Origin: Candidatus Micrarchaeota archaeon
GTDB taxonomy: Archaea > Micrarchaeota > Micrarchaeia > Burarchaeales > JAKAKT01
Direction of reading: 5' to 3'
DNA: 32,000 nt
NCBI GenBank assembly: GCA_043814255.1
Contig: JBDRKD010000103.1
Span: 6,499 to 38,498 of the forward strand
Shown: in pieces, positions 11,349 to 30,300 of the stretch
Position numbering within the stretch: the first letter of the stretch is position 1
How the letters are laid out: each line of letters starts with the position of its first letter
Notes under the pieces: model-generated
Told to the model about the DNA's origin: nothing
What the model saw: the letters and a program-made list of their open reading frames with translations, nothing else
The model's database searches: none
Translations under genes and position numbers: made by a program

Positions 11349-12290
11349 ATGAGGGTAACCCTGTTCGCGTTTGTTTTGCTTTCTGCGCACATCATAACTG
11401 CCTACGAGATAGGCGATATCAGGGAATTTGATTCAAGCGGGTTCTCAGAATATCCTGAAATAGAAGGGATCAGGCAAGACCTCCTGCTCTCGTTCTATTC
11501 TGTTGGCAGGGACAACCTGCCCCCAGGTTTCCCGGAATTTGCTGGCGCATCAGTTATCTTCATGACGCAGTTTGGGAAGGCCTATGACCTATCCTCCTCC
11601 GGAGAACAAACAGACCTCCTGCGCCTTCCGGAAACCCTAACGGATTTATCCTCATCTCTCCAGCGGATGGAAGGCCTTTCAAGGGACGAGATACTGCTCT
11701 CAAAACACAGCGCGTATCTGGCCAGGTCGTTGTTCGATAGGTATGTCCATGACGAAGCCCGGAAACTTAGGGGACTTGCGGAATCAGAGGCGCGTACGGC
11801 GCGGAAACTAGAATATTACCTAGCGGCCTCAGAACTCTTCGAGCGTTCTGGGGACAAGGTCAGCTCATCCGAGATGAGGGCGACATATGACAGCATAAAG
11901 GCAGCCTATGATGCAGACCTCGAGTCAGCGGATGCTATGTTTACTCAGGGGAAAACAACATGCAATGATGCAATTGAGGACATGGGGGCATGGTTCGGCC
12001 TTCCGGCGTATGCCCGTCTCAGGGAATGCACAGCAACCCTTTTCTCTGCCAGGGGAACATATGTTTCCCATCTGGAATACGAACGTATTGAGCAGTTGGA
12101 TTCGCATATGCTGGCAGCCACCGACACAATGGAAAAGCTCTCAGGCAGCGTGATGGTCCTTTTCGTTTTCGGTTCCATCCTGTTCATATCAATCAACGTC
12201 TTTCTCATATCCAGATTCAGAAGATGGCATGAGGACATCTATGATACATCACTAGGTACAGAGGTGCTCAGTTGGAAAGGAAACTCCTGA
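11349..12290 (+). CDS. Secreted, C-terminally membrane-anchored helical protein of unknown function
   Basis: 313 aa. Signal-like N-terminus MRVTLFAFVLLSAHIITA. The body is rich in Ala, Glu and Arg and looks helical. C-terminal TM VMVLFVFGSILFISINVFLI is followed by RFRRW. A TATA-like acatataata lies about 30 nt upstream of the ATG. Confidence 0.7.
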   Translation: MRVTLFAFVLLSAHIITAYEIGDIREFDSSGFSEYPEIEGIRQDLLLSFYSVGRDNLPPGFPEFAGASVIFMTQFGKAYDLSSSGEQTDLLRLPETLTDLSSSLQRMEGLSRDEILLSKHSAYLARSLFDRYVHDEARKLRGLAESEARTARKLEYYLAASELFERSGDKVSSSEMRATYDSIKAAYDADLESADAMFTQGKTTCNDAIEDMGAWFGLPAYARLRECTATLFSARGTYVSHLEYERIEQLDSHMLAATDTMEKLSGSVMVLFVFGSILFISINVFLISRFRRWHEDIYDTSLGTEVLSWKGNS

Positions 12291-14563
12291 TATTATCCAT
12301 AATCATTATGGCATCTTGCATTTCCCATGGCCAGATTGTGGTTGGAGAGGTACTGACCTATCCCGCCCTAGTAGTCGAATCAACCGAGAATGTTACTCTC
12401 TCATGGGGGACAAACGACCTTGCGCTCAGTTCAATCAACTGCACAGGCCCGGGAGTGGAGACATACCACGTTCAAGTCGAGACCGAGCCAACAGCGAACC
12501 ACGCATTCTTCCTGGAGACCAATTTCACAGGTGAAGGAATACTGGCATGCACAATCGTCACGTTCCCAATCAATGGGACATCAGTCACAAGGGACTACGA
12601 AATCCCCATCCATTGCGAAGGCGTCAGGCTGGAGCTTCTGAATCCATCAGTACGGGTAGCAGCTTATTTCACAAGGCCAAAAGGGACAGGGCATTATATG
12701 CTGAATACAACGATAAAAGTCAGGAACGCATGTGTTGGTCTGGCGATAGTTTCTGTATCATCGACCCCGCCAGGCGGGATGCAGATGGCCGTGAAGGCAG
12801 ACGACATCTACGGCCTCAATGTTAAGGACATGCCAGTGACGATAACAGTACCTGATTCAATGGATGAGGGAGTTTACCAGGGAACAGTGCGCTTTAGTGC
12901 AAACGGCAGTACCACTACATCGCTGGTAAACATTTCAGTCCATTGGCCAGGTCCAACAATCAGGGCGAAAATCGGCAAGGGTCCATCTGACATCAACCCA
13001 CTTGGGAACGTCAGGTCCGGAACGGATGTGGTGGAATACGTGGAGATTGAGGAAACAATGGGGTATAATGCCGCGAAGGATGTGGTATGTTCTGTGAAGT
13101 TCCAGGATAGGAACCAGGAACAGCAGGCAATAAGCATCGGTACAGTTAATCCATTTGGGAATGGGCGATGCTCATTTACAATGAACTTCCCAGACAGGAA
13201 TGTCCGCATAGGGAACTATTCCGTGTGGATAGCAATAACATCCAACAATTCAGGTGACCTCAACCTGGTGACAAATTACACAATACCTGTACCATACATC
13301 CTGTTTGCACCAACAACAATAGACCTTGGGAAGCTCACGTTCGATTCGGGAAAGGATTCGTCGAATTCAATCCTGACAATCATAGAGAACGGCGGGTTCA
13401 CCCCTATAGAGAACTTGAAATTCGAGCTTCTTGGCGGGAGTGAAGGATGGATATCCCTTCCATCATGCTACTATGTCCCACCAGGCGGAAGAATTAACTG
13501 CACGTTCAAGATATCGCTCAGCGATAATGCGAGCATAGGGCCGAAGGAATGGGTGATAGGCATAAGTTCAGAGTATATTCAGCCTGTTGAGCTTACAGCA
13601 AAGGTCGAAGTCTACTTCATAGGTGTCGAGGATGCTATCGCAACATTGGAGGCAATGTCTGTTTATTCCATAATGGACCAATTCATACAAGCGGAGACGG
13701 TGAAAACAAACACTGTAATGATGCTCGAGGGAATAAAAGAGAGTGATATCTCAATGGAGGACACTGCAATCATACTCTCAATGTATGGGGGCGTCGAGTC
13801 TCTGCTTGCCCAGACCGAAAGGGCCCGTGGAAATTTCTCATCAGGAGACCACCTTGGTGCTGGAAGGAACCTTCTTGTTTCCAGTATGGCACTCGAGAAG
13901 ATATCCTCCACTTACCGCTCCACAAAAGGGAACAGAACAGGTGCGTTACGTGATTTGGGAGAGGTCTACACCGCGAGCGCCTCCCTGTGGTCCGCCTCAT
14001 CCGAAGATGTTCTCAAGGTGCTTGAAGCCGAGGCAGTAGCAAGCGAGAAGGTCAGTTACAGGAGGGCAGCAGAGTATTACTCCCTGCTTGCAGACATATA
14101 CTGGCAGAGCAATGAAGACAAGTCCAAGGCGTTCTCACATAAGGCAGATACCCTGGGGAGTTTCTATTCAGACTCTGTCATAAGGGCTGGTGAAATCAAG
14201 CGCAATGCAGACAGGCTGTTCTCAATGGCACGCGAAGGGACAATCGAAGCCAGCGGGATGCACATAGTAATCAACCCATTCTCATATGACCGAACAATTG
14301 AAAACTACAGATTCGCATTGGCGGATTACGAGGCAGCATCCAAGCTTTACAAAAGCGCCGGACAGCAGAACGAGTTGAACATAATCCTCTCAACCCTTAG
14401 TGCAGCTGAGCAGGAATACGAATTCGTGGACAGGATGTTCATCCTTGGAGGGGTGGTCCTTTCGCTATTCCTCGTTCTTGTGATACTGCGCGTGACCGTC
14501 GGGATGCAGCGTTATAGGGAAGATGAGGAGGACATGGAGATAGGGAATGTGATGCTACATTAA
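12272..14563 (+). CDS. Large surface protein with an N-terminal beta-sandwich (CARDB/NEW3-like) region, a helical stalk and a C-terminal TM anchor
   Basis: 763 aa. A TTG start is inferred because it gives the signal-like ERKLLILSIIIMASCISHG; it overlaps the upstream gene by 19 nt. It has strand patterns such as VTITVPDSMDEGVYQGTVRFSANG and many sequons. The C-terminal roughly 250 aa look helical and resemble the 313-aa neighbour (ARKLEYYLAASELFERSG versus SYRRAAEYYSLLADIY). The anchor is MFILGGVVLSLFLVLVILRV followed by an acidic tail. Confidence 0.75.
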   Translation: MERKLLILSIIIMASCISHGQIVVGEVLTYPALVVESTENVTLSWGTNDLALSSINCTGPGVETYHVQVETEPTANHAFFLETNFTGEGILACTIVTFPINGTSVTRDYEIPIHCEGVRLELLNPSVRVAAYFTRPKGTGHYMLNTTIKVRNACVGLAIVSVSSTPPGGMQMAVKADDIYGLNVKDMPVTITVPDSMDEGVYQGTVRFSANGSTTTSLVNISVHWPGPTIRAKIGKGPSDINPLGNVRSGTDVVEYVEIEETMGYNAAKDVVCSVKFQDRNQEQQAISIGTVNPFGNGRCSFTMNFPDRNVRIGNYSVWIAITSNNSGDLNLVTNYTIPVPYILFAPTTIDLGKLTFDSGKDSSNSILTIIENGGFTPIENLKFELLGGSEGWISLPSCYYVPPGGRINCTFKISLSDNASIGPKEWVIGISSEYIQPVELTAKVEVYFIGVEDAIATLEAMSVYSIMDQFIQAETVKTNTVMMLEGIKESDISMEDTAIILSMYGGVESLLAQTERARGNFSSGDHLGAGRNLLVSSMALEKISSTYRSTKGNRTGALRDLGEVYTASASLWSASSEDVLKVLEAEAVASEKVSYRRAAEYYSLLADIYWQSNEDKSKAFSHKADTLGSFYSDSVIRAGEIKRNADRLFSMAREGTIEASGMHIVINPFSYDRTIENYRFALADYEAASKLYKSAGQQNELNIILSTLSAAEQEYEFVDRMFILGGVVLSLFLVLVILRVTVGMQRYREDEEDMEIGNVMLH

Positions 14564-17196: not shown

Positions 17197-17493
17197 TTAA
17201 TCACACACCAATAGCGTTCCTCCGCTATATAAACTTTTTCAATATATCGTAAGCCAACTTAGGTTTGGTCCCGGGTTTTCGGGTCTTGGGTTGGAATTCG
17301 CTCTGGGTCGCATTCTGGCTTGAAGGGCCGGAACACACCGGCACAGTTGGTTGGTTTAACACAATCTCGATATACCTGTACAAAATCGAAAGCACACGGA
17401 CCTGAACCAGTTATTTGAACTAACCATCCCCCCTAACACCCGACGACCCGATACATTAAAATACTGACCGAGAAATAGATATGGGAGGTTTGA

Positions 17494-17805
17494 GTGGTTA
17501 ATCTAAACGCAGTCGTGTATGCGGTATGTTTCGTGCTGTTCCTGGTAGGGATAGCGTTCATCTATTACCTCTCAAAAATCACACAGTACAATGAGGCATC
17601 AGAGAACAGAACAAGGCGGAGGATAGAGGATGTGGCATACTACCTCTCAAAGCTTGAGGAACACATCGAGGATGTGGAGGCACAGATTCATAAGAAAATA
17701 GACTCAAGTGAACTGGAGACAAGAATCAAGCTTACCACTTACGACCAAATAATCACGCGGGTTTCAAAACACACCAAGAAAAGCCGGAAGGCGGTGGCAC
17801 AATGA
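17494..17805 (+). CDS. Bitopic membrane protein: N-terminal TM plus coiled coil. It is a paralog of the N-terminal leader module of the next gene.
   Basis: 103 aa. GTG start with GGAGG 6 nt upstream. The TM is AVVYAVCFVLFLVGIAFIYYL. The coiled coil is RRIEDVAYYLSKLEEHIEDVEAQIHKKIDSSELETRIK. It ends in SRKAVAQ and has an ATGA overlap with the next gene. Confidence 0.65.
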   Translation: MVNLNAVVYAVCFVLFLVGIAFIYYLSKITQYNEASENRTRRRIEDVAYYLSKLEEHIEDVEAQIHKKIDSSELETRIKLTTYDQIITRVSKHTKKSRKAVAQ

Positions 17806-18524
17806 TTGAAGAACTTGAGATAGCACCACAATCACTCATACTTCTTGTAGTAACGGGACTGTTCCTATTCTGGCTCGTTCGCTATGCCGGGGGCCTGAGG
17901 AGGGAAGCGGAGTCTAAGAGGCTTGTGGTCGAGGAAGACATGGCTGACCTGGAGGATGTCTCAAGGAAGCTGGAGGAGAACATAGACGACCTGTACAAGC
18001 GTTTGGACAGCAAGGTTGATCAGGTGCACCTAGAATTAAAGCTCGAGGAGCTGGAGCGAAAGCGGGCAGAGCTCATTCGCAGTGCAATAGAGGCGAGGAA
18101 GAAAGCACAGGCATCCATCGAGCTGATGGCAATATTCACGCTGTTGCTCGTACCGATAGCTATCGGTTTCATGTATTCGTACACTGCAATCTCTGATTCA
18201 ATGAATTACAAGGCCGCTGTAGTTCTTGATCGCATCGGAGCAGTCGCGGAGAAGCTTTATGTCGAGGGTCCAGGGGCAAGTGCCCTGGTTTATGTGGACG
18301 TGCCTAGTGGAGTTGACCATGCCTCCTCATATATAGGGACCCCATCATCCGGAGAGGGAAGGTATCTTTCCATCAATCAATCAGGCTCCGAGTCTTTTCG
18401 CATATTGGATGCAACAGTAAGCGGGGAATGGCCAAACACCACGGGGGGAAAAGTTCGGCCAGGTTTCAGTGTATTTAATCTGACTGTCAATTCCTCTGGC
18501 ACTGTCAGGATTCAGTTAAGGTGA
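17802..18524 (+). CDS. Pilin-like protein with an internal class III signal motif preceded by a 102-aa TM plus coiled-coil leader
   Basis: 240 aa. The TM is SLILLVVTGLFLFWLV and the coiled coil is EEDMADLEDVSRKLEENIDDLYKRLDSKVDQVHLELKLEELERKRAEL. Then comes ARKKA|QASIELMAIFTLLLVPIAIGF (Q103 at 18108), which matches the DUF361-type QxSxExxxL prepilin motif. A roughly 115-aa beta-rich domain follows. Confidence 0.65.
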   Translation: MIEELEIAPQSLILLVVTGLFLFWLVRYAGGLRREAESKRLVVEEDMADLEDVSRKLEENIDDLYKRLDSKVDQVHLELKLEELERKRAELIRSAIEARKKAQASIELMAIFTLLLVPIAIGFMYSYTAISDSMNYKAAVVLDRIGAVAEKLYVEGPGASALVYVDVPSGVDHASSYIGTPSSGEGRYLSINQSGSESFRILDATVSGEWPNTTGGKVRPGFSVFNLTVNSSGTVRIQLR

Positions 18525-18907
18525 GGTTGTTGAGGGCCCAAATAGCACTTGAGTACATATTTGCGTTTCTTATGTGGATTATCATATGCACAATAACGGT
18601 ATTCATGATTAACCCATACGTCTCTGCCCTGTCGTCTGGGTTCACGACAATGTCATACTCCGCGACAATCCAAAAGCTAAACGAGATAGCTGCTTCTGAC
18701 CTTGATGGCATGAAGCACACACAGGTATATCACAAGATAAATAACACGCTGTCTTTCAACAACACTATTGTTGCGATACATACTACGGATGGGGAGGTAA
18801 TCATTGGGTCCCAACTTACCTATACATATGCGGACAATTTCAACCAGGGGGACAGGATGCTCATAAAGAATAACGGGGACGATATACTGGTCATACGGGT
18901 GGAATGA
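18521..18907 (+). CDS. Class III signal peptide (type IV pilin-like) protein
   Basis: 128 aa. GTG start overlapping the upstream stop (GTGA). The N-terminus MRLLRA|QIALEYIFAFLMWIIICTITVF fits the (K/R)(G/A)|Q..(S/A).E...hydrophobic prepilin pattern. Confidence 0.7.
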   Translation: MRLLRAQIALEYIFAFLMWIIICTITVFMINPYVSALSSGFTTMSYSATIQKLNEIAASDLDGMKHTQVYHKINNTLSFNNTIVAIHTTDGEVIIGSQLTYTYADNFNQGDRMLIKNNGDDILVIRVE

Positions 18908-19407
18908 TGAGGGGACAGGCTGCATCTATGGACCTAATCCTTTCGACAGTCCTCTTTGCGCTTTTGGCGTTTTCCATAATGTCATTTCTCCACACAGAGA
19001 TAAAGAGTGCTGATTCCAAGTTTCTTGATGAGAAGAGGGACCGCCTGACAAATTTCGCCGCCTATCAACTGATATTCCTCTCGGGACGTCCTGATAACTG
19101 GAACAGCTCAAACTGCGACCGCATAGGCCTGTCATGCTCCCAAGGTTCGCTATGCACAAGCAAGATATCTGAAATTGAGGCAATGTATTCATCAGACTAT
19201 AATGAAACGCGAAATCTGCTTAACCTGGTAGCATATGATGTATCGATCCACATCTGTTCAACGGGCAATTACTCGGATTGCGACTATAACTTTACGACTC
19301 AGGACAGGGAAGCGGATAGGGCAGCATCATCCTCCGTTTCAAGAGCAGAACTGGTTTCAACGCTAAACGGAGAACTCGTTTCAGTGATAGTCTATGCTTG
19401 GAGTTAA
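18904..19407 (+). CDS. Class III signal peptide (type IV pilin-like) protein, Cys-containing
   Basis: 167 aa with an ATGA overlap to the upstream gene. The N-terminus is MMRG|QAASMDLILSTVLFALLAFSIMSFL. The globular part has 6 Cys and several sequons. Confidence 0.65.
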   Translation: MMRGQAASMDLILSTVLFALLAFSIMSFLHTEIKSADSKFLDEKRDRLTNFAAYQLIFLSGRPDNWNSSNCDRIGLSCSQGSLCTSKISEIEAMYSSDYNETRNLLNLVAYDVSIHICSTGNYSDCDYNFTTQDREADRAASSSVSRAELVSTLNGELVSVIVYAWS

Positions 19408-19862
19408 CAATCAGAATAATAGATTGAATCGTAAACCCCATTCTCTGCGACAACCCTCAGGGTGTGGTAACCAGTTGAAAAGCTGCTCGTTGTATTGAAG
19501 CGGACGACATCATATGGTCCCCAAATTCCCACATCTGAATACAGTACCCACGTACCGTTGAGAATATCTATTGCCGCCACACTCACATACGTACTATCCA
19601 CGAATATGGCAGTCGTGTTCGCATCAAGATACGAATCCCCCGTGTTCTTTATATAGACATATGAGTATCCACCAATATAACATGGGTCGCTGATTATAGT
19701 TATATCAGTTTTTATCTGGTCTGAAAGAGTATCCGCTTTCTGGTTAAAGGCATTAGCCACACTACCGGCAGCTGCCGTCATAACACCAACAAGCCCAAGC
19801 GCGACTATTGCAGCTGCTATGAAAAAGATGGCCTGCGTTACGCTTGTTCCAAAACCCATCAA
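19404..19862 (-). CDS. FlaG/FlaF-family (ArlG-like) protein
   Basis: 152 aa. The N-terminus (M)MGFGTSVTQAIFFIAAAIVALGLVGV carries the MGF(S/G) hallmark of archaeal FlaF/FlaG. The beta-sandwich text is YVYIKNTGDSYLDANTTAIFVD...YHTLRVVAENGVYDSIYYSDC. The C-terminus is paralogous to the next gene. Confidence 0.65.
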   Translation of the reverse strand: MMGFGTSVTQAIFFIAAAIVALGLVGVMTAAAGSVANAFNQKADTLSDQIKTDITIISDPCYIGGYSYVYIKNTGDSYLDANTTAIFVDSTYVSVAAIDILNGTWVLYSDVGIWGPYDVVRFNTTSSFSTGYHTLRVVAENGVYDSIYYSDC

Positions 19863-19868
19863 TCACAC

Positions 19869-20858
19869 CTAAGAACAGTCATAAGTCCCATATGCAGATA
19901 TCCCGTCCTCAGTAACAACAGCTACTCTATGTTCGCTGTCAGCGCTACTCATATTCATATACGTTATATTAATACTTTTAGCTGGAGCCAGGATCCCAGT
20001 CACCGTACCATAACTAGTAACAGCATAACTTACATTCAGGTACGGATCCGAATTTAGGCCTAAAGAATCAGTTTGGTATATTAATACATATTTTCGTTCA
20101 TTAGCGCCAACGGCCCAATTCTCTATGAGCTCAAAATCAGTATCCCCCGTCTTACTTATGTACGCGCTCGGTACTGAGATGCTCTCCCACCCGGTTGTTT
20201 CCTCGTAATCCACACCGTCAAAATAAGTGCAACAGCCCCAGTCAGTTGTATCAAGCGTAACCCCTAAGACATCATTCCCATAGTAATAATCAACTCTCCA
20301 ACCAGAATCCAGTCCCGCGCTCTTTACAAATGAGGAGGACTTAGCATATAGTGTGGCACCTGTTACGCTTGCACCGTCCAGTAGGTCAGAAGTATCGAAA
20401 CTGAAGTATGAGCGGTACTCTATATTTGATGGGCCACTTCTATCCTCCCCTATGTAAGAGGTATCCCCAATTGAGGATACAAGATACTTAACACCATTGA
20501 AGCTTATGTGGCCATCCACCCCTGGGGTTGAATAAAAAGTAGTTGTATTAATTGTAGTCCCAGTGACGTTCTCCAGCACCTCATTATTATCGAGAAAATC
20601 CATCTTATCGAGCCTGAGCCCCACACTCCCCGTATTATTCAAAGCAATGGTTATGTTGTAGAGCGAACAATCCCCCTCAACCGTAATATTCTCAACATTC
20701 AGGGATGTTTGGTGCTGCTCCTTGTAGTTCTCGTTCTGAATCCGGAATGCATCCGAGATATCGTGCACACTTGATTCGATGATGGGATACGCTATAACCA
20801 AGGCTCCAGCTATCCCAAGCATAATCAATATCATGGCTATCGCAGTGCTGAATCCCAT
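19869..20858 (-). CDS. FlaF-like (ArlF-like) protein carrying an inserted DNRLRE-like beta-sandwich domain of about 170 aa
   Basis: 329 aa, roughly twice the typical FlaF length. It starts MGFSTAIAMILIMLGIAGALVIAY and has the core text YNITIALNNTGSVGLRLDKMDFLDNNEV...EHRVAVVTEDGISAYGTYDCS. Residues about 115-285 contain YRSYFSFDTSDLLDGASVTGATLYAK...WESISVPSAYISKTGDTDFEL...DPYLNVSYA. Confidence 0.6.
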   Translation of the reverse strand: MGFSTAIAMILIMLGIAGALVIAYPIIESSVHDISDAFRIQNENYKEQHQTSLNVENITVEGDCSLYNITIALNNTGSVGLRLDKMDFLDNNEVLENVTGTTINTTTFYSTPGVDGHISFNGVKYLVSSIGDTSYIGEDRSGPSNIEYRSYFSFDTSDLLDGASVTGATLYAKSSSFVKSAGLDSGWRVDYYYGNDVLGVTLDTTDWGCCTYFDGVDYEETTGWESISVPSAYISKTGDTDFELIENWAVGANERKYVLIYQTDSLGLNSDPYLNVSYAVTSYGTVTGILAPAKSINITYMNMSSADSEHRVAVVTEDGISAYGTYDCS

Positions 20859-20918: not shown

Positions 20919-21665
20919 CTAGAAGAACCTTGACATGAGCCTTGTCATGAAGCTTGGGGGGCGATATTGCACATCCGCAAGCGCGGCTCCGAACTTTTTC
21001 ATCTCAATGGAGTAATTAGTATGCGGCTTGTGATGCACCACCGGTCTCCCGTATTCAACACTATCCATTACGTTCTCGTCATAAGGCAGGATTCCCAACA
21101 CATCGTTCCCTATCCAGTCTTCAGCTTCCCTCTCAACCTTGCTCCAGTTTCTCCTCACCTTGTTGACCACAGTTCCAAGGACATCAATACCATACTTCTC
21201 CGCCACCTTTTTGGTTTTGAGCGTATTGGCGTAAGCGGTAATCTCTGGAGTTGTTATGAGCATAACCTTGTCCGCAAGCTTCAGGCTCTCTATAGTGTTC
21301 TCACCAAGCGTTCCAGGAGCATCCAGAAGTATGACATCCGCAATGCCTTCCATACTATCGACAATATCGTTTAGGTGCTTTGGTTTTACGGTGGACATGT
21401 CATCCACAGACAGGCTTGATGCAACCACCTTCACACCAGTCGGGTGTTGAAACACGGCATCACTGATATGAATCCCATCCAATACGACATCATGGAGCGT
21501 CTTTTTTGGGAACGGTGGCCCAAGAATGCAGCCCAAATCCCCATTTGTCAGATTCCCATCAAGAATCACGACATCAACCCCAAACTCAGAAAGCGCAATC
21601 CCTAGGTTTGCCACAAAATTGCTCTTACCAACCCCACCTTTTCCGGATGCAACAGTTATAATCAT
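20919..21665 (-). CDS. minD: MinD/ParA-family P-loop ATPase with a C-terminal amphipathic helix
   Basis: 248 aa. It has the deviant Walker A MIITVASGKGGVGKS and a Walker B-like VILLDAPG. The C-terminal SFMTRLMSRFF resembles a MinD membrane-targeting helix. Confidence 0.8.
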   Translation of the reverse strand: MIITVASGKGGVGKSNFVANLGIALSEFGVDVVILDGNLTNGDLGCILGPPFPKKTLHDVVLDGIHISDAVFQHPTGVKVVASSLSVDDMSTVKPKHLNDIVDSMEGIADVILLDAPGTLGENTIESLKLADKVMLITTPEITAYANTLKTKKVAEKYGIDVLGTVVNKVRRNWSKVEREAEDWIGNDVLGILPYDENVMDSVEYGRPVVHHKPHTNYSIEMKKFGAALADVQYRPPSFMTRLMSRFF

Positions 21666-21668
21666 CGC

Positions 21669-22145
21669 TCATCCCTCTCCCAATTTTTTTTTCATATTGT
21701 CCTTTAGATACACCCTTCTCTCCTCTCGGCTTAGTGAGTCAAAATCAACGTTCTCCCATGAATTTTCAGTATCGCCGTTTTGGAGTACATCATCCTCAAC
21801 GATGATAGCATTCTCGAGTTCCTTTATTGGATCAAAAGGCGCGTGTTTCTGAGTAGTGATTTCTTCCGTTACATCATCCTCCAAGACAGGTGCACTCTCA
21901 TCCAGAACAGTGATTTCCCCGCGCTTGACCTTCCAATAGTATTCCTTTTCAATCTCGAGTTCCGTTCCTATGACTTCAACAGGCAAACTGTATCCTAAAT
22001 CATTTATAGTGGAAAGGAAGTCTTCCCATTGCACATGGTCCCAATATCCATCCTGTACATTAACAAAGTCCTTAAGCAAGTTAGAGGACTTGAGCCTATC
22101 AAGTTCTGAAGCATCGAAAATCTGTTCACTCTGCCCACTCATCAT
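21669..22145 (-). CDS. Acidic cytoplasmic protein of unknown function, first gene of the MinD/FlaF/FlaG operon
   Basis: The track ORF starts at the TTG at 22169. I prefer the ATG at 22145 because GGAGG lies 5 nt upstream (TGGAGGCATATGATG). The protein is very rich in Asp and Glu with a basic C-terminal tail (RRVYLKDNMKKKLGEG). Its stop is 3 nt from the minD start. Confidence 0.55.
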   Translation of the reverse strand: MMSGQSEQIFDASELDRLKSSNLLKDFVNVQDGYWDHVQWEDFLSTINDLGYSLPVEVIGTELEIEKEYYWKVKRGEITVLDESAPVLEDDVTEEITTQKHAPFDPIKELENAIIVEDDVLQNGDTENSWENVDFDSLSREERRVYLKDNMKKKLGEG

Positions 22146-22435
22146 ATGCCTCCAAATCAAACTGGTCAATAAAATTTTAACACAGGGGGTATTTAAGCAT
22201 TTCCCTTTTTGGTGCTGTTAAGTCATTGTTGGTGGCAACGCCAACAAGCGGCAGCCAATTCGGGAGGCCGTTAGTGCCTTGGGGCACGGATCCGAACTGC
22301 TGCGTGCCATCCGTTACCAGTGTGAACGCTTTTAATCTGACACCTCATCAGCCGAAATTTCCAGCAAAGAACAAATATCCATCAACAAAAGCAAACATTT
22401 ATACCCGTGTCTCAATCATATACCTTAGTGGTCGA

Positions 22436-23377
22436 ATGTATCGAATGAGCGAAGGGCAAGTCCCAGATTTCCTCGATTATATCTCAAGGAATGTAGAACT
22501 GATAATACCATATAGGAAAGACGGGGTATCCTATTTCAAGAAGTACGAGCCAGGGGACAAGCCGTTTCTGGGGAAAGGGAACACAGATTATTCTGTGAAG
22601 CCGTTCTTCTTCCCATACAAGGACGCAATGTTCAAATATACGAAGGATGGGGATATCCAACACAAACCAGAGGCAAAAGAGCGGGTCATATTCGGAGTGC
22701 GCCCGTGCGACCTTCATGGAATATCAGTCACAGACATGTTCTTCTCAAACGACATAAAGGACCCACACTATATGGAACTGAGGGAGAAGACGATACTCAT
22801 CGCACTCGATTGCACAATACCTGGGAAGAATTGTTTCTGCGACTCGCTTGGGAAAAGGAACCCAATCGGCCATGACGTGGTTCTTTTCCATGTGGGAAAG
22901 CACTACTACGCCAGATCGGAAACCGACAGAGGGAGGGATTTGATAGAAGGCAGCGGTGTTTTCAAGGAAAGCGAAGACATCGAACAGCCAAAACGAAGCC
23001 CGTGTAAGAAGAGTGCGGCTCCTGTAGAAAACTCCAAAATCAAGTGGGAGAAATGGGGAAAGCAATGCTTCGGTTGCAGTGCCTGCACCGCGGTGTGCCC
23101 GACATGTGTATGCTTCGATGTGGAGGACGAGGTCCAACTAGATGGAAACGTGGAGCGCAACAGGCTCTGGGCATCGTGTTTCACAAAAGATTTCACAACA
23201 GTCGCGGGAAACCACTGTTTCAGGCTTTCTCACACCGAGATGCTCAAGCAATTCGTAAATCACAAGTTCTCCTATTTCGAGGATGAGTTCGGGGTCACGA
23301 TGTGCGTTGGTTGCGGGAGGTGCATAGGCGCCTGCACGGCGAAAATTGACATATCAAAAATAATAAGCGGGAAATAG
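22436..23377 (+). CDS. hydB: Sulfhydrogenase (group 3b NiFe hydrogenase) beta subunit, 4Fe-4S dicluster protein (AsrA-like)
   Basis: Cluster motifs CFGCSACTAVCPTCVC and CVGCGRCIGAC are present. The N-terminus MYRMSEGQVPDFLDYISRNVELIIPY...KPFFFPYKD resembles HydB. The start is set at 22436 (alternative 22445) because a TATA atttatac sits at 22397..22404. The track start at 22226 adds 70 codons that do not look like protein. Confidence 0.75.
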   Translation: MYRMSEGQVPDFLDYISRNVELIIPYRKDGVSYFKKYEPGDKPFLGKGNTDYSVKPFFFPYKDAMFKYTKDGDIQHKPEAKERVIFGVRPCDLHGISVTDMFFSNDIKDPHYMELREKTILIALDCTIPGKNCFCDSLGKRNPIGHDVVLFHVGKHYYARSETDRGRDLIEGSGVFKESEDIEQPKRSPCKKSAAPVENSKIKWEKWGKQCFGCSACTAVCPTCVCFDVEDEVQLDGNVERNRLWASCFTKDFTTVAGNHCFRLSHTEMLKQFVNHKFSYFEDEFGVTMCVGCGRCIGACTAKIDISKIISGK

Positions 23378-23385
23378 GTGTACCA

Positions 23386-24177
23386 ATGGACGATCCATAC
23401 ATTCCAAAAAAATCAAGGATTCTGAAAATAACTGATGAGACCCAGGACATAAAGACATTTCACATAGAGAACATAATAGGTCAATATTCCCCGGGCCAAT
23501 TCGTAGAGCTTACTGTTTGGGGTGTTGGGGAGGCTCCGATATCCATCTCAAGTTCCGAAGGGGACCTAATCCTAACTGTGAAGAAGATAGGTTCTGTTAC
23601 AGATGCATTGTTCAGGCTGAGAGAGGGCGATACAATTGGCATCAGGGGTCCGTATGGGAGCGGTTGGCCAATCCATCTGCTCAAAGACAAGAGCGTGATA
23701 GTCATCTGCGGAGGAGTCGGACTTCCTCCTCTGAGGCCAGTCATACACCACGTGATGAACTTGGGGCGAAAAGCCATACTCTGTTATGGGGCAAGAAGCC
23801 CCGAGGACATGGTGTACAGGGATGAACTCGAACATTGGAAGACGCAGGGAATCGACGTGAGGACGACTGTTGACACATGCGGTATGGGGTGGAAGGGAAA
23901 TGTCGGGGTAGTGACATGCATAATGGAGACTGCAATAAAGAAGGACGAAGGCGCAATATGCATGCTCTGCGGCCCACCGATAATGATGAAATTTGCCACA
24001 AAATTACTGTTCGATACGGGATTCAAAAAGAACCAGATATACGTTTCACTGGAACGGATGATGAAATGCGGGGTCGGGAAATGCTGCCATTGCATGGCTG
24101 GTGGGAAATTTGTTTGCAAGCACGGGCCAGTGTTCCGGCTCGATGAAATCGAGAACCTTCCAGAGAGGTTGTTGTGA
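23386..24177 (+). CDS. hydG: Sulfhydrogenase gamma subunit (FAD/NAD(P)-binding, 2Fe-2S; AsrB/PyrK-like)
   Basis: 263 aa. Motifs seen are GVGEAPISISS, the nucleotide-binding VIVICGGVGLPPLRPV, and the C-terminal MKCGVGKCCHCMAGGKFVCKHGPVF cluster motif. Confidence 0.8.
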   Translation: MDDPYIPKKSRILKITDETQDIKTFHIENIIGQYSPGQFVELTVWGVGEAPISISSSEGDLILTVKKIGSVTDALFRLREGDTIGIRGPYGSGWPIHLLKDKSVIVICGGVGLPPLRPVIHHVMNLGRKAILCYGARSPEDMVYRDELEHWKTQGIDVRTTVDTCGMGWKGNVGVVTCIMETAIKKDEGAICMLCGPPIMMKFATKLLFDTGFKKNQIYVSLERMMKCGVGKCCHCMAGGKFVCKHGPVFRLDEIENLPERLL

Positions 24178-24178
24178 C

Positions 24179-24934
24179 ATGGAAAAGAAGAAAGTAGCCA
24201 TATTCAGCCTAACTTGCTGCGCAGGATGCCAGCTTGAGATACTGGATAATCCAGAACTTTTGGATATGCTGAAATACATTGAAATAGTGAAATTCCCAAT
24301 AGCCATAGCGCGCAACGAGCCAGGACCATATGATATAGTTTTTGTTGAGGGCATGGTCACAACCCCAGAGGAGATAGTAATAGTGAAGAGCATTAGGAAG
24401 AGCACGAAACACCTCATAGCCATCGGTGCCTGCGCAACATATGGTGGAGTCCCGACAATAAGGAACTCCATCCCGCAACGCGAGGCCGAGGCAGCGGCCT
24501 ATGGGGAGAACACGCAGCACATCCTGTCAATAAAACCATCAGGGGTTTCCGAATACGTTAAGGTCGATTACCTAATCCACGGATGCCCGATCAGCAAGGA
24601 TGAGTTTTCATCGGTTGTAAAGGCTCTCCTCGCAGGGAAATACCCAAAGCCCCACACACATTCGGTTTGCATGGAATGCAAAGCAAAGGGAAACAAATGC
24701 CTGTTCCCAGAGGACATATGCATGGGTCCGATAACGCATGGGGGATGCGGAGCCCCATGCCCATCCAACGGGGTGGCGTGTTTCAGTTGCCGCGGCCCGA
24801 AAGAGGATGCCAATGTTGAGGAATTTGTTTCCCTCGCGAAAAAGCAGGGCTATTCTGATGCAGAGATAAGGCGGCTCCTCGGAAAGTTTGCATGCACTGC
24901 AAAACAATACAAAAAAATATCTGGAGTAGATTGA
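24179..24934 (+). CDS. hydD: NiFe hydrogenase small (delta) subunit
   Basis: The ATG at 24179 lies 1 nt after the hydG stop. The N-terminus MEKKKVAIFSLTCCAGCQLEILD is the typical small-subunit proximal cluster motif. Further Cys motifs are GCPISKDE, CMECKAKGNKC and GGCGAPCPSNGVACFSCRGP. The track start at 24101 is an upstream alternative-codon artefact. Confidence 0.85.
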   Translation: MEKKKVAIFSLTCCAGCQLEILDNPELLDMLKYIEIVKFPIAIARNEPGPYDIVFVEGMVTTPEEIVIVKSIRKSTKHLIAIGACATYGGVPTIRNSIPQREAEAAAYGENTQHILSIKPSGVSEYVKVDYLIHGCPISKDEFSSVVKALLAGKYPKPHTHSVCMECKAKGNKCLFPEDICMGPITHGGCGAPCPSNGVACFSCRGPKEDANVEEFVSLAKKQGYSDAEIRRLLGKFACTAKQYKKISGVD

Positions 24935-26209
24935 ATGGTCTTGATAAAACTCGATCACATAACAAAAATAGAGGGACACGGAAGCCTACACGTCCAAGTC
25001 GAGGAAGGGGAAGTCAAGGAAGTTCAGATGGGGGCAGTGGAAGGGGCAAGGTTCTTTGAGGCAGTCGTGAAGGGCAGGGAGTTCCACGAGATTCCAACAC
25101 TAACCTCTCCAATATGCGGCATATGCAGCCAAGCCCACGTTCTCGCATCCATAAGTGCAATAGAGTGCGCCACTGGGATAGAGCCTTCACACCAGACAGT
25201 TCTTATGCGTGAGTTGCTCAACATAGGGCAGTATGTACAGAGCCACAATGTACACACCCACTTCCTTGTGCTCCCGGATTACTTTGGCTATGGGGACGCA
25301 ATAGCGATGATGGATAAGCACGAAGATGTCGTTAAAAGGGCACTTAAATTCAAGCGTTGGGCGAGTTCATTCTGCACATTGGTGGGCGGCAGGGATATGC
25401 ATCCGGTGTGCGCGCAGGTCGGCGGGTTCTCACACATCCCGGACAAGGGCAAGCTCAGCGATATGATCTCCACACTCAAGGAGCTTCGGCCCGAAGCAAT
25501 GAAGATAGCTGAGATTTTCGGTTCGTTGAAATATCCTGATTTTGAGAGAAAGAAGGACTACGCATCCCTCATCCAGGAAAATAAGTACCCCTTGATAAGC
25601 GGAGACGTAACAATAGGGCAGACGCGATTCAGCCCAAGTGAATATCTTGATAATGTCTCCGAATCCACAAAAGCATATTCTCCGAGCAAATACTCGCTTT
25701 TCAAAGGAAAGAGTTTCATGGTTGGGTCACTTGCTCGCATTAATAACAACCTGCCAAACCTCTCGGACAATGCAAAGGTTGCGATTGCCCATTCAGAAAT
25801 AACCTTCCCAAACAATAATCCATTCACAAACAATTTCGCTCAAGCGGTTGAGATAGTGCATTGCGTTGACCGCGCCATAGACATACTGGAAAACCACCGT
25901 CTCAAACGTGAGCAATGGATCCACCCAAGGAAGCTCAAGATCCAGAACGGAAGAGGGGTAGGGGCCGTTGAGGCCCCGAGAGGAACGCTCTATCATGATT
26001 ACACCATATCAAAGGGAATCATCCAGTCTGCCAATATAATCACCCCGACAGTTCAGAACCTAAACTGTTTGGAGGATGATGTGCGCGCTTATCTCCCGAA
26101 GATACTTGACAGTGATGAGAAAACAGTAGTTGCCGAACTCGAGAAACTTGTTCGCGCTTACGACCCATGCTGCTCATGTTCGGTCCACTATCTGGATGTC
26201 CGCAGATAA
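24935..26209 (+). CDS. hydA: NiFe hydrogenase large (alpha) subunit, group 3b type
   Basis: 424 aa. It has the N-terminal KIEGHG motif, the L1 nickel-binding motif PICGICSQAH, and the C-terminal DPCCSCSVH followed by a short YLDVRR tail (the protease substrate). Its ATG abuts the hydD stop (TGAATG). Confidence 0.9.
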   Translation: MVLIKLDHITKIEGHGSLHVQVEEGEVKEVQMGAVEGARFFEAVVKGREFHEIPTLTSPICGICSQAHVLASISAIECATGIEPSHQTVLMRELLNIGQYVQSHNVHTHFLVLPDYFGYGDAIAMMDKHEDVVKRALKFKRWASSFCTLVGGRDMHPVCAQVGGFSHIPDKGKLSDMISTLKELRPEAMKIAEIFGSLKYPDFERKKDYASLIQENKYPLISGDVTIGQTRFSPSEYLDNVSESTKAYSPSKYSLFKGKSFMVGSLARINNNLPNLSDNAKVAIAHSEITFPNNNPFTNNFAQAVEIVHCVDRAIDILENHRLKREQWIHPRKLKIQNGRGVGAVEAPRGTLYHDYTISKGIIQSANIITPTVQNLNCLEDDVRAYLPKILDSDEKTVVAELEKLVRAYDPCCSCSVHYLDVRR

Positions 26210-28737: not shown

Positions 28738-30300
28738 TCATTTTACACGCCCCATACAGTATATGTCTGGCCCCAAACAACCTTCTTTCTCTAGTTGCGA
28801 AACCATCCAACCTAGGACTCTGTTCCTCAACTGCATATATTTCTCCCTCCCAAATTCTACGTTCCCTATGGCATACCTCTTGTTCTTTGCGTTGAAGCAG
28901 AACATACAATTGCTAAGATTCTCGCAGTTATGGCAGAACATGGAATCCCTGCAATTCGAGCAGCCATCCATCTCGAAACATTTTACCAGGTTTGCTGAGT
29001 GATAGCAGTTGAGACAGAATCCACAATCGATAATCCAGAAAGAGCCGAACACGTATTCTGAGTTGAAGACCTGGCCGGAGATTCCAGAGTTTTTCCCAAA
29101 GTTTGAGTCTACAACCTTGTAGATGTTAACCGAATTCTCAGAGAGCGGACTTCCGATTACGTTTTGACAACCACCCGCAATTATCTCAGGCGAATAATAT
29201 GCGATCTTCTCTATTTTCTTGAGTATCACGCTTAAGTTCAACTCCTCAGTCTCAGACAAGTCAATCCTTAGCTTCCCGAGCTCGAGCGCCTCCTCGTTGG
29301 TTACAAAACGGCTCTCATGGATGCCCCGCATAAATGGAAAAGATGAGAACGGCGGATAGGTCTCTCTTCCGAACGGAGTTTTTCTCCTTCCCACCGTGGC
29401 AGTATGTTTGCTAAGCCATTTCTCAAACCTTGTTATTGGACCAAGATTCGCCCCCAATGTTATCCTGCCCGCTGTGTTGAATGCCTTGTCTATCCTGTCC
29501 ATCCTCTGTTCATCAGTTCTTTCTTTAACATTTATCTCCGGAGGTGCTTCTGTCCTTCCAGGTAGATTGAATATATTCGGCAGTTTTTTGTCCTTAACAA
29601 GTTTTTCCCTAATCTCTTCGAGAAGTTTGTTCCTTATCCTGAAATACCTGTCCTTTTCGAGCGGCAAGTTTCCTATAACATACCTTGCCCCCCTCTGGTT
29701 TAGCGAGAACATGTTGTGTGTGCAACCGAGGCAATTGTAGGAGAAGTAAGTATCGCTTGTGTCAGCGACGTAATAAGCCTCGAAGCACCTGGTCGAATTA
29801 TACGAGACAGTCTTTATCATGTGCCTCGCCTTTCCACTTGTGCTCGATCCGAAAACATACTCGCTGTCCCTCACCATCCAGGAGTAAGCGATGTACTTCG
29901 ACTGCTTGATGTTAGTGCTTCCCACCACATAGAAGCTGTCCATGCACACATCAACATCATTTACGAACCCCGACTCGCCGAGCACCCTGTTCCCAGTGTA
30001 CAATACTCTGTCGTCAATCGCGTTGAGAAGGCTGTCGATATCCTTTATCTCGTTTATGTTCAGCGGCTTAAATTCCCCCTCAATTATCTCATCCTGGGAG
30101 ATGAACTTCGCCTCCCCGCAGTGCTCGTCTGTCAGCAGGGTTATGTCCTTTCCCGAGATCCAAGATTTCTTTTTCGATACAGGGCGGAAGTACTCTGTCA
30201 GGTACTCCCTGAAGTTCTCAAGTCGCACTTCCCCATCACCCTTCCCCAGCAGCATTTTGAAGGTGCGTTGAAACGCTGAGTCTACATCCATATCAATCAA
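28738..30300 (-). CDS. Internally duplicated protein of unknown function with a C-terminal cysteine ladder
   Basis: 520 aa. Two homologous halves are offset by about 268 aa: DSEYVFGSS...RGARYVIGNLPLEKDRYFRIRNKLL and NSEYVFGSF...NKRYAIGNVEFGREKYMQLRNRVL. Residues 426-468 carry 10 Cys with C-x2-C-x5 periodicity (CGFCLNCYHSANLVKCFEMDGCSNCRDSMFCHNCENLSNCMFC). Confidence 0.6.
   Translation of the reverse strand: MIDMDVDSAFQRTFKMLLGKGDGEVRLENFREYLTEYFRPVSKKKSWISGKDITLLTDEHCGEAKFISQDEIIEGEFKPLNINEIKDIDSLLNAIDDRVLYTGNRVLGESGFVNDVDVCMDSFYVVGSTNIKQSKYIAYSWMVRDSEYVFGSSTSGKARHMIKTVSYNSTRCFEAYYVADTSDTYFSYNCLGCTHNMFSLNQRGARYVIGNLPLEKDRYFRIRNKLLEEIREKLVKDKKLPNIFNLPGRTEAPPEINVKERTDEQRMDRIDKAFNTAGRITLGANLGPITRFEKWLSKHTATVGRRKTPFGRETYPPFSSFPFMRGIHESRFVTNEEALELGKLRIDLSETEELNLSVILKKIEKIAYYSPEIIAGGCQNVIGSPLSENSVNIYKVVDSNFGKNSGISGQVFNSEYVFGSFWIIDCGFCLNCYHSANLVKCFEMDGCSNCRDSMFCHNCENLSNCMFCFNAKNKRYAIGNVEFGREKYMQLRNRVLGWMVSQLEKEGCLGPDIYCMGRVK

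Follow-up and report, generated by a model that had tools for sequence, protein, structure and literature searches.

How does a class III signal peptide come to lie in the interior of a membrane protein, and what would become of a protein built in this way? By definition, a class III signal peptide is found at the N-terminus and has a short hydrophilic leader, and search tools such as FlaFind, PilFind and PF04021 look for it there. In the window, i.e. the whole stretch of 32,000 nucleotides of DNA from Candidatus Micrarchaeota archaeon that was analyzed, the site is located 102 residues deep in a predicted membrane protein, and the “leader” in front of it is a conserved protein, which is separately encoded elsewhere.

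A 240-residue open reading frame with an internal class III signal motif

An ORF of 103 aa (17494-17805) and an ORF of 240 aa (17802-18524) are joined by an ATGA overlap. The initial annotation had described this junction, both ORFs and a class III motif at Q103 within the longer one, all of which were confirmed. In NCBI, the product of the longer gene is deposited as hypothetical protein ABIG39_06365 of Candidatus Micrarchaeota archaeon. The pilin-like genes and the segments relevant for the following analyses are (arrows indicate predicted cleavage sites; the evidence is given in parentheses):

17494..17805, + strand: TM-CC1, a stand-alone TM plus coiled-coil protein of 103 aa with a GTG start (ORF, homologs)
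17802..18524, + strand: fused gene of 240 aa with an ATG start, comprising the TM-CC2 module, the class III signal and the pilin-like domain (uninterrupted ORF)
17820..17879, + strand: first hydrophobic helix, residues ~7-26, predicted N-out/C-in, with an acidic N-tail in front and RYAGGLRREAESKR behind (hydropathy, charge counts)
17880..18095, + strand: charged, heptad-patterned helical region, residues 27-98, predicted cytoplasmic (charge, heptads, AF2, pN/pS ~0.3)
18072..18074, + strand: Leu91 (CTC), position -12 relative to the site (homolog alignment)
18096..18122, + strand: class III signal peptide core RKKA↓QASIE, with the predicted scissile bond A102↓Q103 between bases 18107 and 18108
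18108..18521, + strand: predicted mature pilin-like protein of 138 aa (AF2, sequons, 246 relatives)
18521..18907, + strand: second pilin-like gene, 128 aa, short leader MRLLRA↓QIALEY (PF04021 E 0.002, below cut-off)
18904..19407, + strand: third pilin-like gene, 167 aa, short leader MMRG↓QAASMD (ORF, homology)

The sequence RKKA↓QASIELMAIFTLLLV corresponds to residues 99-117 of the 240-aa protein, Q103 representing position +1. As in other class III signal peptides, the leader ends with Ala preceded by basic residues, while Gln and Glu occupy positions +1 and +5, respectively. Kyte-Doolittle windows detected hydrophobic segments at residues ~7-25 and ~106-124, and the latter, together with the AF2 model of the pilin part, provides the hydrophobic helix of ~20-25 residues and the globular head expected behind such a site. 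Instead of a short hydrophilic N-terminal leader, however, 102 residues with a TM helix and a coiled coil precede Q+1. A-1 (A102), Q+1 (Q103), S+3 (S105) and E+5 (E107) do not vary among the 16 full-length homologs, 15 of which also have K-2. Unfused relatives are subject to the same constraints, with K/R at position -2 in 124 of 146 cases and A/G/S at position -1. These features agree with how class III signal peptides are defined in the literature (PMC10191384) and with DUF361/EppA-type pilins (PMC3875500). The fused clade has little depth (55-70% identity), and the conservation of the motif could in part reflect constraints acting on the helix itself.

Downstream of the site, the protein is predicted to be pilin-like: an N-terminal helix of ~55 residues, with ~22 hydrophobic ones at its start, leads into a beta domain of five strands with conserved N-glycosylation sequons. 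AF2 modelled this part from 85 sequences with a pLDDT of 95.7 and a pTM of 0.81, yielding a helix at residues 2-57 and, behind it, 5 strands. At E<=1e-3, a profile search carried out with the pilin part only retrieved 246 relatives, of which 149 were examined. The motif was present in 146, and in 142 of these Q+1 is located within the first 30 residues (median position 7), which makes them ordinary class III prepilins. Profile positions 2-4 align to residues 2-20 in nearly all relatives. The columns that are internal here are thus the extreme N-termini of about 140 short-leader pilins and, judged from this alignment, the KKAQ motif is by its ancestry a true class III signal peptide, in support of the initial annotation.

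Searches against protein families were less informative for the pilin part. At gathering score, PF04021 did not match the full protein, and with the pilin part it gave hits below the cut-off in 3 of 15 members (best E 0.1). The archaellin domain PF01917 was not found in the pilin part. When the latter was compared with archaellin by hhalign, only the 17-residue signal was aligned, with a probability of 3%, and nothing was aligned in the comparison with the ArlG-like protein.

The N-terminal part is conserved and has a stand-alone paralog

Residues 1-102 had been described as a TM helix followed by a coiled coil, and hydropathy and heptads agree with this description. Residues 27-102 comprise 18 K/R and 20 D/E but no Pro, and a heptad pattern extends across residues 37-88. 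W24, R27 and Y28, located in the region of the first hydrophobic helix, are invariant, which includes a separate 106-aa protein encoded at locus L009. Across homologs, the N-terminal part is under purifying selection: pN/pS was ~0.3, with synonymous sites being saturated, similar to the pilin part. The last ~10 residues of the charged region form a variable linker, which is also the site of insertions of 0-19 aa. Indels and an entropy of 1-2 bits are seen at residues 90-98, and entropy amounts to 0.7-2 bits in the 9 residues directly before the motif. The uninterrupted 240-aa-type architecture is kept in at least 17 independent Micrarchaeota assemblies. Homologs of the whole fused architecture comprise 16 full-length proteins (55-70% identity), two metagenome loci and the more distant protein P0027.

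The C-terminal domain of the fused protein carries 2-6 N-glycosylation sequons versus 0-1 in the N-terminal part. Sequon placement and the positive-inside rule predict that the cleavage site is exposed at the cytoplasmic face of the membrane, in agreement with the topology suggested at the outset. For the full-length 240-aa protein, AF2 returned a model of low confidence (pLDDT 59) with helices at residues 9-68 and 74-131, in which a single continuous helix is drawn across A102↓Q103.

TM-CC1, the protein encoded directly upstream, contains a hydrophobic helix at residues ~6-24 (17509-17565), and the sequence GGGAGGT is present 4 nt upstream of its GTG start. Eight homologs with 57-68% identity were found, whose genes are always located directly upstream of the fused gene, and an 89-aa homolog (E 9e-8) is encoded at L009. 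The similarity between TM-CC1 and the N-terminal module of the fused protein, noticed already in the initial annotation, was detectable by BLASTP (E 0.001) and became clear when profiles of both modules were aligned by hhalign (probability 96%, E 2.8e-9, 67 columns). By this comparison, TM-CC1 is a true paralog of the fused N-terminal module. For the coiled-coil modules, Pfam and NCBIfam yielded only sub-threshold, compositional matches (PspB, FtsL, T2SSM, SMC-like), including T2SSM in 3 of 10 TM-CC1 members with a best E of 0.008. A search of a set of 5.8 billion proteins with the N-module profile was swamped by coiled coils sharing words with the query, and only 2 hits were scored.

Some elements of the initial annotation did not withstand comparison with homologs. 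The C-terminus of TM-CC1, SRKAVAQ, had been interpreted as a mimic of the RKKAQ cleavage context, but homologs end with KKVAQR, RRIKAVV or EEKAENEN, indicating that this text is unconserved. Likewise, the N-terminus of the fused protein, MIEELEIAPQS, had been likened to the N-terminal helix of a pilin. It is acidic and not class III-like, because it has neither a basic residue nor a conserved G/A. The view of the region as a series of iterated modules is not supported, since the presumed cleavage mimic and the pilin-like character of this N-terminus, on which it draws, rest on unconserved text.

Outgroup loci point to a gene fusion

At L009, the N-module is encoded by a separate gene of 106 aa (41% identity, E 7e-15). 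It is separated by 118 bp from the downstream pilin gene, whose product (45% identity, E 3e-45) possesses a normal leader; the intergenic stretch contains a GGAGGTG of its own. Locus L007 encodes a pilin trio with leaders of 3-4 aa, without the N-module. The initial annotation had named homologs with leader and pilin parts always in separate genes as an observation that would speak against it. This applies only in part: the parts are separate at L009, and the module is absent from L007, whereas module and pilin are always fused in the clade of the window and in P0027. A neighbor-joining tree places the fused forms in a derived group. On the basis of the short-leader relatives and the separate genes of L009, the 240-aa protein is a lineage-specific fusion of a pilin gene to the gene in front of it.

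The position of Leu91 is informative in this regard. Here, Met is found in 5 of the 16 full-length homologs as well as in the truncated P0017, so that in all of these proteins M(I/M)QSA(I/V)xLKKKA↓Q makes up a perfect 12-aa leader, and the leader of the L009 pilin aligns with the stretch around Leu91. The Met at position -12 is probably a relic of the ancestral pilin start, which has been lost in the window. In one close relative, L005, a 540-bp contig carries a short-leader pilin, which is met in an A-rich run by an upstream ORF in another frame. This contig was discarded as a clean example of the split state, as the frame change in the A-rich run leaves it ambiguous; a frameshift error or secondary fission is more likely. 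The split state was therefore judged from L009 and L007.

A model for processing of the fused protein

The data led us to a model that we regard as likely, while leaving considerable room for doubt. It comprises the fusion, insertion of the protein through two TMs, cleavage to two products and a coiled-coil scaffold formed together with the paralog. As the comparison shows, a small bitopic membrane protein (N-terminal TM helix plus cytoplasmic coiled coil, one of a paralog pair) has become fused, without a change of frame, to a pilin-like gene that is the first in a set of three. The original start codon of the pilin was lost, and the class III signal (K-K-A↓Q-x-S-x-E plus hydrophobic helix) is now found at residues 100-125. 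Both TM helices would be inserted into the membrane, with the N-tail and the glycosylatable beta domain facing outside and the coiled coil facing the cytoplasm. An aspartic class III signal peptidase of the PibD/EppA type, acting at the cytoplasmic membrane face, would then cut after Ala102. This one cut would restore the two ancestral products in a 1:1 ratio: a 138-aa pilin-like subunit, which begins with Gln and could be extracted into a type IV filament, and a 102-aa membrane-anchored coiled-coil protein. The latter would probably pair with its paralog TM-CC1 to provide a cytoplasmic scaffold of the filament machinery with ArlX-like architecture. Judged by architecture and gene neighbourhood, the coiled-coil modules are candidates for such a scaffold function.

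Of the mechanisms considered, a cut between A102 and Q103 is the one that the sequence data support best. We infer that cleavage is kept because the signal residues stay fixed next to a variable, indel-rich linker. A need for a class III peptidase in this organism is indicated by the two adjoining pilin-like genes, which carry ordinary short class III leaders. An A24-family prepilin peptidase is encoded neither in the 32-kb window nor in the related loci examined.

Alternatively, the fusion might persist as an uncut two-pass membrane protein, in which the external pilin-like domain is tethered to the cytoplasmic coiled coil and serves, for instance, as a fixed base, anchor or stator-like element, in the way that ArlF and ArlG retain their archaellin-like N-terminal helices in the membrane. 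The continuous helix drawn by AF2 over the site and the lack of a peptidase gene in the vicinity would fit such a protein, and so would the loss of the pilin start in most members, which closes the usual route to a free prepilin. In addition, the locus encodes ArlF-/ArlG-like proteins, a membrane-retained archaellin-like kind (PMC8978795). However, K-2 and A-1, which are relevant only to recognition by the peptidase, are fixed beside a linker that varies freely, and a rigid mechanical tether is not expected to accept Pro/Ser/Lys-rich insertions of 0-19 aa. Moreover, the two parts work as separate proteins in L009, and the L007 pilin does without such a module. We therefore consider a permanently uncut protein unlikely, albeit deserving of serious attention. 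A variant of both ideas appears doubtful as well: the pilin could be tethered or released on a signal, with the cut at A102↓Q103 licensing filament priming, or the uncut protein could link the filament base to the cytoplasmic scaffold. If true, such a tether or checkpoint would constitute an undescribed coupling of inside and outside in a type IV filament machine.

It is quite improbable that the pilin is translated separately from an internal start, the long ORF representing an unrelated N-terminal protein or minor read-through. As stated in the initial annotation, the 20 codons before Q103 include no ATG, GTG or TTG, and the last start is the GTG codon of V75 (18024), which has a weak AGGT 7 nt upstream and would generate a 28-aa leader. 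Among homologs, this residue is T/S/I/V, and the GTG was rejected as start site given its lack of conservation, the weak match to a ribosome-binding site and the absence of any start nearer to Q103. The five full-length homologs and P0017 have Met at -12, a position that is preceded by GAGG at a distance of 6 nt in L011 and L013; in homologs of this type, dual initiation is conceivable. In the window, CTC occupies this position and the 28 codons leading up to Q103 are devoid of start codons, and in none of the at least 17 assemblies are the parts separated by a stop or frame change. Finally, it is hardly credible that two adjacent genes were merged into the long ORF by faulty assembly or annotation, or that the motif is a chance resemblance. 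The L005 contig with its two frames could be quoted in favor of an artefact, but is itself more readily explained as described above. The same continuous frame is present in independent NCBI, ENA, JGI and Logan assemblies, the N-terminal part evolves as coding sequence, and the columns of the motif match, one by one, those at the N-termini of 146 relatives.

Comparison with known systems

The pilin part shares several features with DUF361/EppA-type pilins (M. maripaludis EpdA, EpdB, EpdC; PF04021), namely the motif [K/R]-[G/A]↓Q-x-S-x-E followed by a hydrophobic helix (PMC3875500), a mature size of about 130-160 aa and N-glycosylation sequons. The leaders of these pilins are hydrophilic and 5-13 aa long, in contrast to the 102-aa leader with TM helix and coiled coil described here. 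Three such genes follow one another in the window, next to genes for a MinD/FleN ATPase and for two additional small membrane proteins, an arrangement also described for clade 1 (Epd-type) loci (PMC4858521); this likeness is drawn from published descriptions (PMC4858521; 10.64898/2026.04.22.720090). Epd-type minor-pilin modules are marked by linkage to EppA, two TadC-like genes and MinD, the last of which is encoded in the window. The window differs from Epd-type loci by PF04021 scores below the cut-off and by ArlF/G-like genes that are additionally present.

Among the type IV pilins of bacteria, T4b pilins and the major pilins of S. sanguinis likewise have long leaders. To our knowledge, these leaders comprise a few tens of residues at most and have no known function once removed, and none of them contains a transmembrane segment or matches a separately encoded protein. 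Nor do we know of any prepilin peptidase substrate whose leader bears its own transmembrane helix. The long bacterial leaders differ from the one in the window in being hydrophilic or neutral peptides, and class III leaders “much longer” than usual are still processed by prepilin peptidase, leader length being variable (PMC10191384). In the literature searched, neither a transmembrane-containing class III leader nor polyprotein processing by a prepilin peptidase is described, which is not proof of absence.

In the initial annotation, the leader had been compared with PilN/PilO. Indeed, PilN/PilO/GspM (T2SSM) are small bitopic coiled-coil proteins of type IV filament loci, which often form paralogous pairs. 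Their coiled coil and ferredoxin-like domain are external to the membrane. In the window, the distribution of charges predicts the opposite topology with the coiled coil in the cytoplasm, a globular domain is lacking and T2SSM matches stay sub-threshold, so that this comparison is not supported. In its architecture, the N-module resembles ArlX rather than PilN/PilO. ArlX (FlaX), the scaffold of the crenarchaeal archaellum, consists of a single N-terminal TM helix followed by a cytosolic alpha-helical part, as predicted for the modules studied here, and forms a ring around ArlH/ArlI/ArlJ (PMC8978795; PMC5019145). The TM-CC genes adjoin ArlF/G-like genes, and at L009 the genes for a secretion ATPase and for a KaiC/ArlH-like ATPase directly precede the two modules. 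On the other hand, the TM-CC modules are much shorter than ArlX, exist as two paralogs, exhibit no detectable sequence similarity to it, and occur together with ArlC and ArlD/E at L006, which encodes both of them. In NCBIfam and Pfam, neither module had a significant match, be it to ArlX, to another archaellum family or to any other entry.

Gene fusions as such are common among archaellum components: ArlC/D/E occur as C, D, E, DE or CDE proteins, and accessory genes are fused or split depending on the lineage (PMC4858521, PMC8978795). These fusions involve soluble cytoplasmic partners, which stay fused. By contrast, the fusion in the window is probably undone after translation, because a membrane protein has been fused upstream of a protease site. 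Should the protein be cut, we know of no earlier example of a prepilin peptidase serving as a polyprotein-processing enzyme or of a leader peptide with a life of its own. Such a cut would also imply that prepilin peptidases tolerate long, membrane-anchored N-terminal extensions. As a general rule, the data suggest that proteins with a cytoplasmic C-terminus can be fused upstream of a pilin harmlessly, because the peptidase site separates the partners again. Genome screens restricted to N-termini would miss pilins of this fused kind. The pair of small membrane-anchored coiled-coil proteins represents candidate scaffold components of DPANN filament machines.

Genes neighbouring the pilin-like set

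The three-gene pilin-like set is located inside or beside archaellum gene clusters of Micrarchaeota. The second and third pilin-like proteins have homologs in the L007 trio (E 1e-9 for the 128-aa and E 7e-17 for the 167-aa protein), and synteny is conserved for both genes. They are followed by four genes on the opposite strand:

19404..19862, - strand: ArlG-like protein of 152 aa, its gene converging on the pilin operon (PF01917 E 2e-19)
19869..20858, - strand: protein of 329 aa, ArlF-like in its N-terminal domain and extended by a long C-terminal part (NF052590 ArlF E 9e-20, below cut-off)
20919..21665, - strand: archaeal MinD/FleN-type ATPase, 248 aa (TIGR01969 E 8e-61, above cut-off; synteny conserved)
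21669..22169, - strand: acidic protein, 166 aa, last gene of the conserved block (position conserved)

The acidic 166-aa protein had no family match in Pfam or NCBIfam, and its interpretation as a diverged ArlD/E was dismissed, as no similarity was found. The ArlG-like protein also matches NF052591 ArlG with E 2e-24, below the equivalog cut-off. The counterpart of the ArlF-like protein comprises only 141-146 aa in L001, L006 and L007. At L007, two half-size T2SSF genes are present near the pilin trio.

Architecture and predicted topology of the 240-aa protein

The analysis concerns two overlapping open reading frames (ORFs):

17494-17805, + strand: ORF, TM-CC1 gene, encoding a stand-alone 103-aa protein with transmembrane helix (TM) and coiled coil
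17802-18524, + strand: ORF, fused gene, encoding 240 aa; ATGA overlap with the 103-aa gene

The 240-aa protein, which NCBI lists as hypothetical in a Candidatus Micrarchaeota MAG, begins with an acidic N-tail (net charge -3 across 10 residues) and a first hydrophobic segment at about residues 7-25. The 76 residues from 27 to 102 comprise 18 K/R, 20 D/E and no proline, with a/d heptad hydrophobicity spanning 37-88. The motif RKKA↓QASIELMAIFTLLLVPIAIGFMY (arrow, predicted cut), a second hydrophobic peak at 106-124 and a beta-rich C-terminal domain complete the protein. The final possible start codon ahead of Q103 is the GTG at V75. Re-examination of the sequence thus reproduced the ORFs, segments, motif position and last start codon of the initial annotation, which had proposed a prepilin with a 102-aa membrane-anchored coiled-coil leader.

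A basic stretch, RYAGGLRREAESKR, comes after helix 1 while RKKA precedes helix 2, a charge distribution that fits a predicted N-out/loop-in/C-out topology. The C-domain holds two to six N-glycosylation sequons, of which three are positionally conserved, versus none or one in the N-part. Together, acidic N-tail, basic flanks and sequon distribution would place the predicted cut site at the cytoplasmic face of the membrane; prepilin peptidases have their active site at this face (PMC10191384).

The internal motif resembles class III signal peptides of related pilins

A profile of the pilin part only (from RKKAQ onward), run against 1.84 billion representative proteins, yielded 246 matches at E<=1e-3. 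Of the 149 relatives listed, 146 have [G/A/S]-Q-x3-E with a hydrophobic stretch behind it. In these 146 proteins the median position of Q+1 is 7, with 126 at or below 15 and 16 at 16-30 (e.g. MRA↓QVSFEY, MASLRRA↓QASIEF, MDSKKA↓QSSIEY). Beyond position 60 it was found, among the relatives listed, only in the likewise fused protein P0027 (position 114) and in one probable mis-called start. Position -2 is K/R in 124/146 and position -1 is A/G/S, in agreement with the published class III signal peptide signature (PMC10191384). The EppA-cut DUF361 pilins of Methanococcus share the +1Q/+5E signature and have leaders of 5-13 aa (PMC3875500). Judged from sequence, the internal site is by ancestry a class III signal peptide. 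In an AF2 model computed from an 85-sequence alignment (pLDDT 95.7), the pilin part forms an N-terminal helix of 56 residues and, behind it, a sheet of five strands, the "lollipop" layout of pilins. The pilin part scored under the cut-off of PF04021, and formal tests for archaellin membership of the domain came out against it.

Evidence for a gene fusion

Separate counterparts of both halves are present at locus L009, a 74-kb JGI contig with the order secretion ATPase, KaiC/ArlH-like ATPase, 89-aa TM + coiled coil, 106-aa TM + coiled coil and three pilin-like genes. The 106-aa protein aligns with residues 13-73 of the window protein at 41% identity (E 7e-15), and the alignment takes in the invariant W-L-x-R-Y. 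Its gene closes with its own stop codon; 118 bp of intergenic sequence containing a separate GGAGGTG come next, and then a pilin (45% identity, E 3e-45) with a normal leader. At L009 5930-6029, 2.5 perfect copies of a 40-bp unit in tandem duplicate the Shine-Dalgarno sequence and TTG start region of this stand-alone pilin gene and yield repeated "LIKLFSKKFR" text within the leader.

Locus L007 is a Candidatus Micrarchaeia contig of 117 kb; its homologous pilin trio carries leaders of 3-4 residues and is not accompanied by a coiled-coil gene. A crude neighbour-joining tree of mature domains groups the fused proteins as derived and leaves L007 and L009 outside this group. P0026, which is sister to the fused P0027, looks unfused, but is ambiguous because two frames meet in an A-rich run on its 540-bp contig. 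We conclude that the 240-aa protein very probably arose when a gene for a bitopic coiled-coil protein was joined to a class III pilin gene and that, as the sequences indicate, the pilin's own start was lost while the residues recognized by the peptidase were kept.

Five of 16 full-length homologs and truncated P0017 have Met at -12 from the site, in M-(I/M)-Q-S-A-(I/V)-x-L-K-K-K-A↓Q; the window has Leu (CTC, 18072-18074). This Met looks like a relic of the ancestral pilin start, and organisms possessing it (L011, L012 and L013 among the loci) might produce an ordinary prepilin in addition to the fusion. At L011 and L013, GAGG is located 6 nt upstream of the -12 Met codon.

The upstream gene encodes a probable paralog of the leader

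The 103-aa protein matched the fused N-module (residues 1-102) in BLASTP (E 0.001) and in profile-profile comparison (probability 96%, E 2.8e-9, 67 columns), a score somewhat inflated by the shared TM/coiled-coil composition. By these matches the two are paralogs, as had been suggested initially. The SRKAVAQ tail, previously taken to mimic the cleavage context, is not conserved in homologs of the 103-aa protein. The TM-CC1 gene is always found directly upstream of the fused gene, and the L009 89-aa protein matches the window 103-aa protein (E 9e-8). By eye, TTAAAATA (17456-17463), ~30 nt ahead of the start GTG (17494), is a plausible candidate for an archaeal TATA box of the four-gene pilin operon.

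Conservation, predicted processing and alternatives

The whole architecture is kept in the 16 full-length homologs (55-70% identity, 234-262 aa), drawn from NCBI, ENA, JGI and Logan assemblies, as well as in two more metagenome loci and the more distant 251-aa P0027. Pairwise codon comparisons, in which synonymous sites are saturated, gave a pN/pS of ~0.3 for residues 1-98 vs 0.25-0.30 for the pilin part. This indicates that the N-terminal part is translated in this frame and under selection, which makes it highly unlikely that the long ORF is an artefact. Internal initiation as the source of the pilin part is also improbable: the last possible start before Q103 is the V75 codon, and since this position varies (T/S/I/V) across homologs, the GTG is not a conserved start.

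A102, Q103, S105 and E107 are the same in all 16 homologs, and 15 of them have K101. Just ahead of the motif, residues 90-98 show an entropy of 0.7-2 bits, and Pro/Ser/Lys-rich insertions of 0-19 residues occur between residues 98 and 99. The main rival reading, in which the two-pass protein stays uncut and keeps a pilin-like ectodomain tethered to the coiled coil, is less likely, as K-2/A-1 stay fixed beside a linker that tolerates indels. We favor processing at the predicted site, which is plausible from sequence: a class III signal peptidase probably cleaves after A102. Such a cut would restore the two ancestral proteins in equal amounts, and the 102-aa fragment would pair with its paralog as a cytoplasmic scaffold.

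Literature searches retrieved no class III leader containing a transmembrane helix and no prepilin peptidase reported to process a polyprotein. The fused prepilin would represent a clean, testable exception, inferred for a narrow clade, to the rules by which class III signal peptides are defined and recognized.

Gene neighbourhood and comparison with known systems

An eight-gene block is kept across the window's clade:

Pilin side, + strand: TM-CC1, fused gene, two short-leader pilin-like genes
Convergent side, - strand: ArlG-like, ArlF-like, archaeal MinD, acidic protein

A secretion ATPase, a platform protein and an A24 peptidase were not found within the 32-kb window. The ArlF-like protein (19869-20858, - strand) measures 329 aa in the window and 327 aa in L003, whereas the counterparts in L001, L006 and L007 reach only 141-146 aa; its extra C-terminal ~200 residues match a DNRLRE domain weakly (E 0.001). 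The pilin trio is paired with FlaC, ArlD/E and ArlF/G-like genes in L006, and with a full arl cluster and two half-size platform genes in L007. At the latter locus (235-8992) the order is two archaellins, FlaC, ArlD/E, ArlF-like, ArlG-like, the Q+1 trio, then convergent ArlJ and ArlI; the trio is inside a complete archaellum cluster, with the two half-size T2SSF platform genes just upstream. To our knowledge, it is unusual for an arl cluster to contain pilins other than archaellins.

The leaders of T4b and S. sanguinis pilins are not known to exceed a few tens of residues. They are hydrophilic or neutral peptides (PMC10191384), whereas the window leader has 102 aa and a hydrophobic segment. 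In pilin signature and gene content, i.e. a pilin-like trio of ~130-160 aa, MinD and "two additional membrane proteins", the locus recalls Epd-type clade 1/system 1 loci (PMC4858521; 10.64898/2026.04.22.720090). The coiled-coil modules are similar to ArlX in architecture (PMC8978795), but not in sequence. PilN/PilO/GspM do not fit, since their topology is opposite to that indicated by the charges. The fusion and the retained site have good support. The initial annotation's PilN/PilO analogy and its "iterated module" details are not supported.

Other genes in the window

At 2-10402 (- strand), one frame stays open for at least 3467 codons and continues beyond the window start, so that it encodes a secreted protein of giant size. 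This protein, probably an adhesin, combines a Sec-type N-terminus with a Laminin_G_3 domain (E 4e-24) and a beta-helix region that matches weakly, under the cut-off (E 1e-4). L001 carries a counterpart of >1800 aa at the same position, and in L009 a 1625-aa Laminin_G/VWA protein comes after the pilin genes. Overlapping genes at 11349-12290 and 12272-14563 (+ strand) encode proteins of 313 and 763 aa; both have a signal-like helix at the N-terminus and a membrane anchor at the C-terminus, and no family match was obtained for either. This pair, which may be of cell-surface or S-layer type, is conserved close to the pilin block of L001 and L003, with sizes of about 315 and 756-759 aa. A 520-aa cysteine-rich protein (28738-30300, - strand) without Pfam match has many CxxC-like pairs toward its C-terminus. 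Four genes at 22226-26209 (+ strand) encode an Fe-S protein (Fer4_22), an FAD/NAD-binding protein and the small (Oxidored_q6) and large (NiFeSe_Hases) subunits of a NiFe hydrogenase. The cluster looks like a cytoplasmic, sulfhydrogenase-like hydrogenase and is linked to the pilin block also in L003 and L004.
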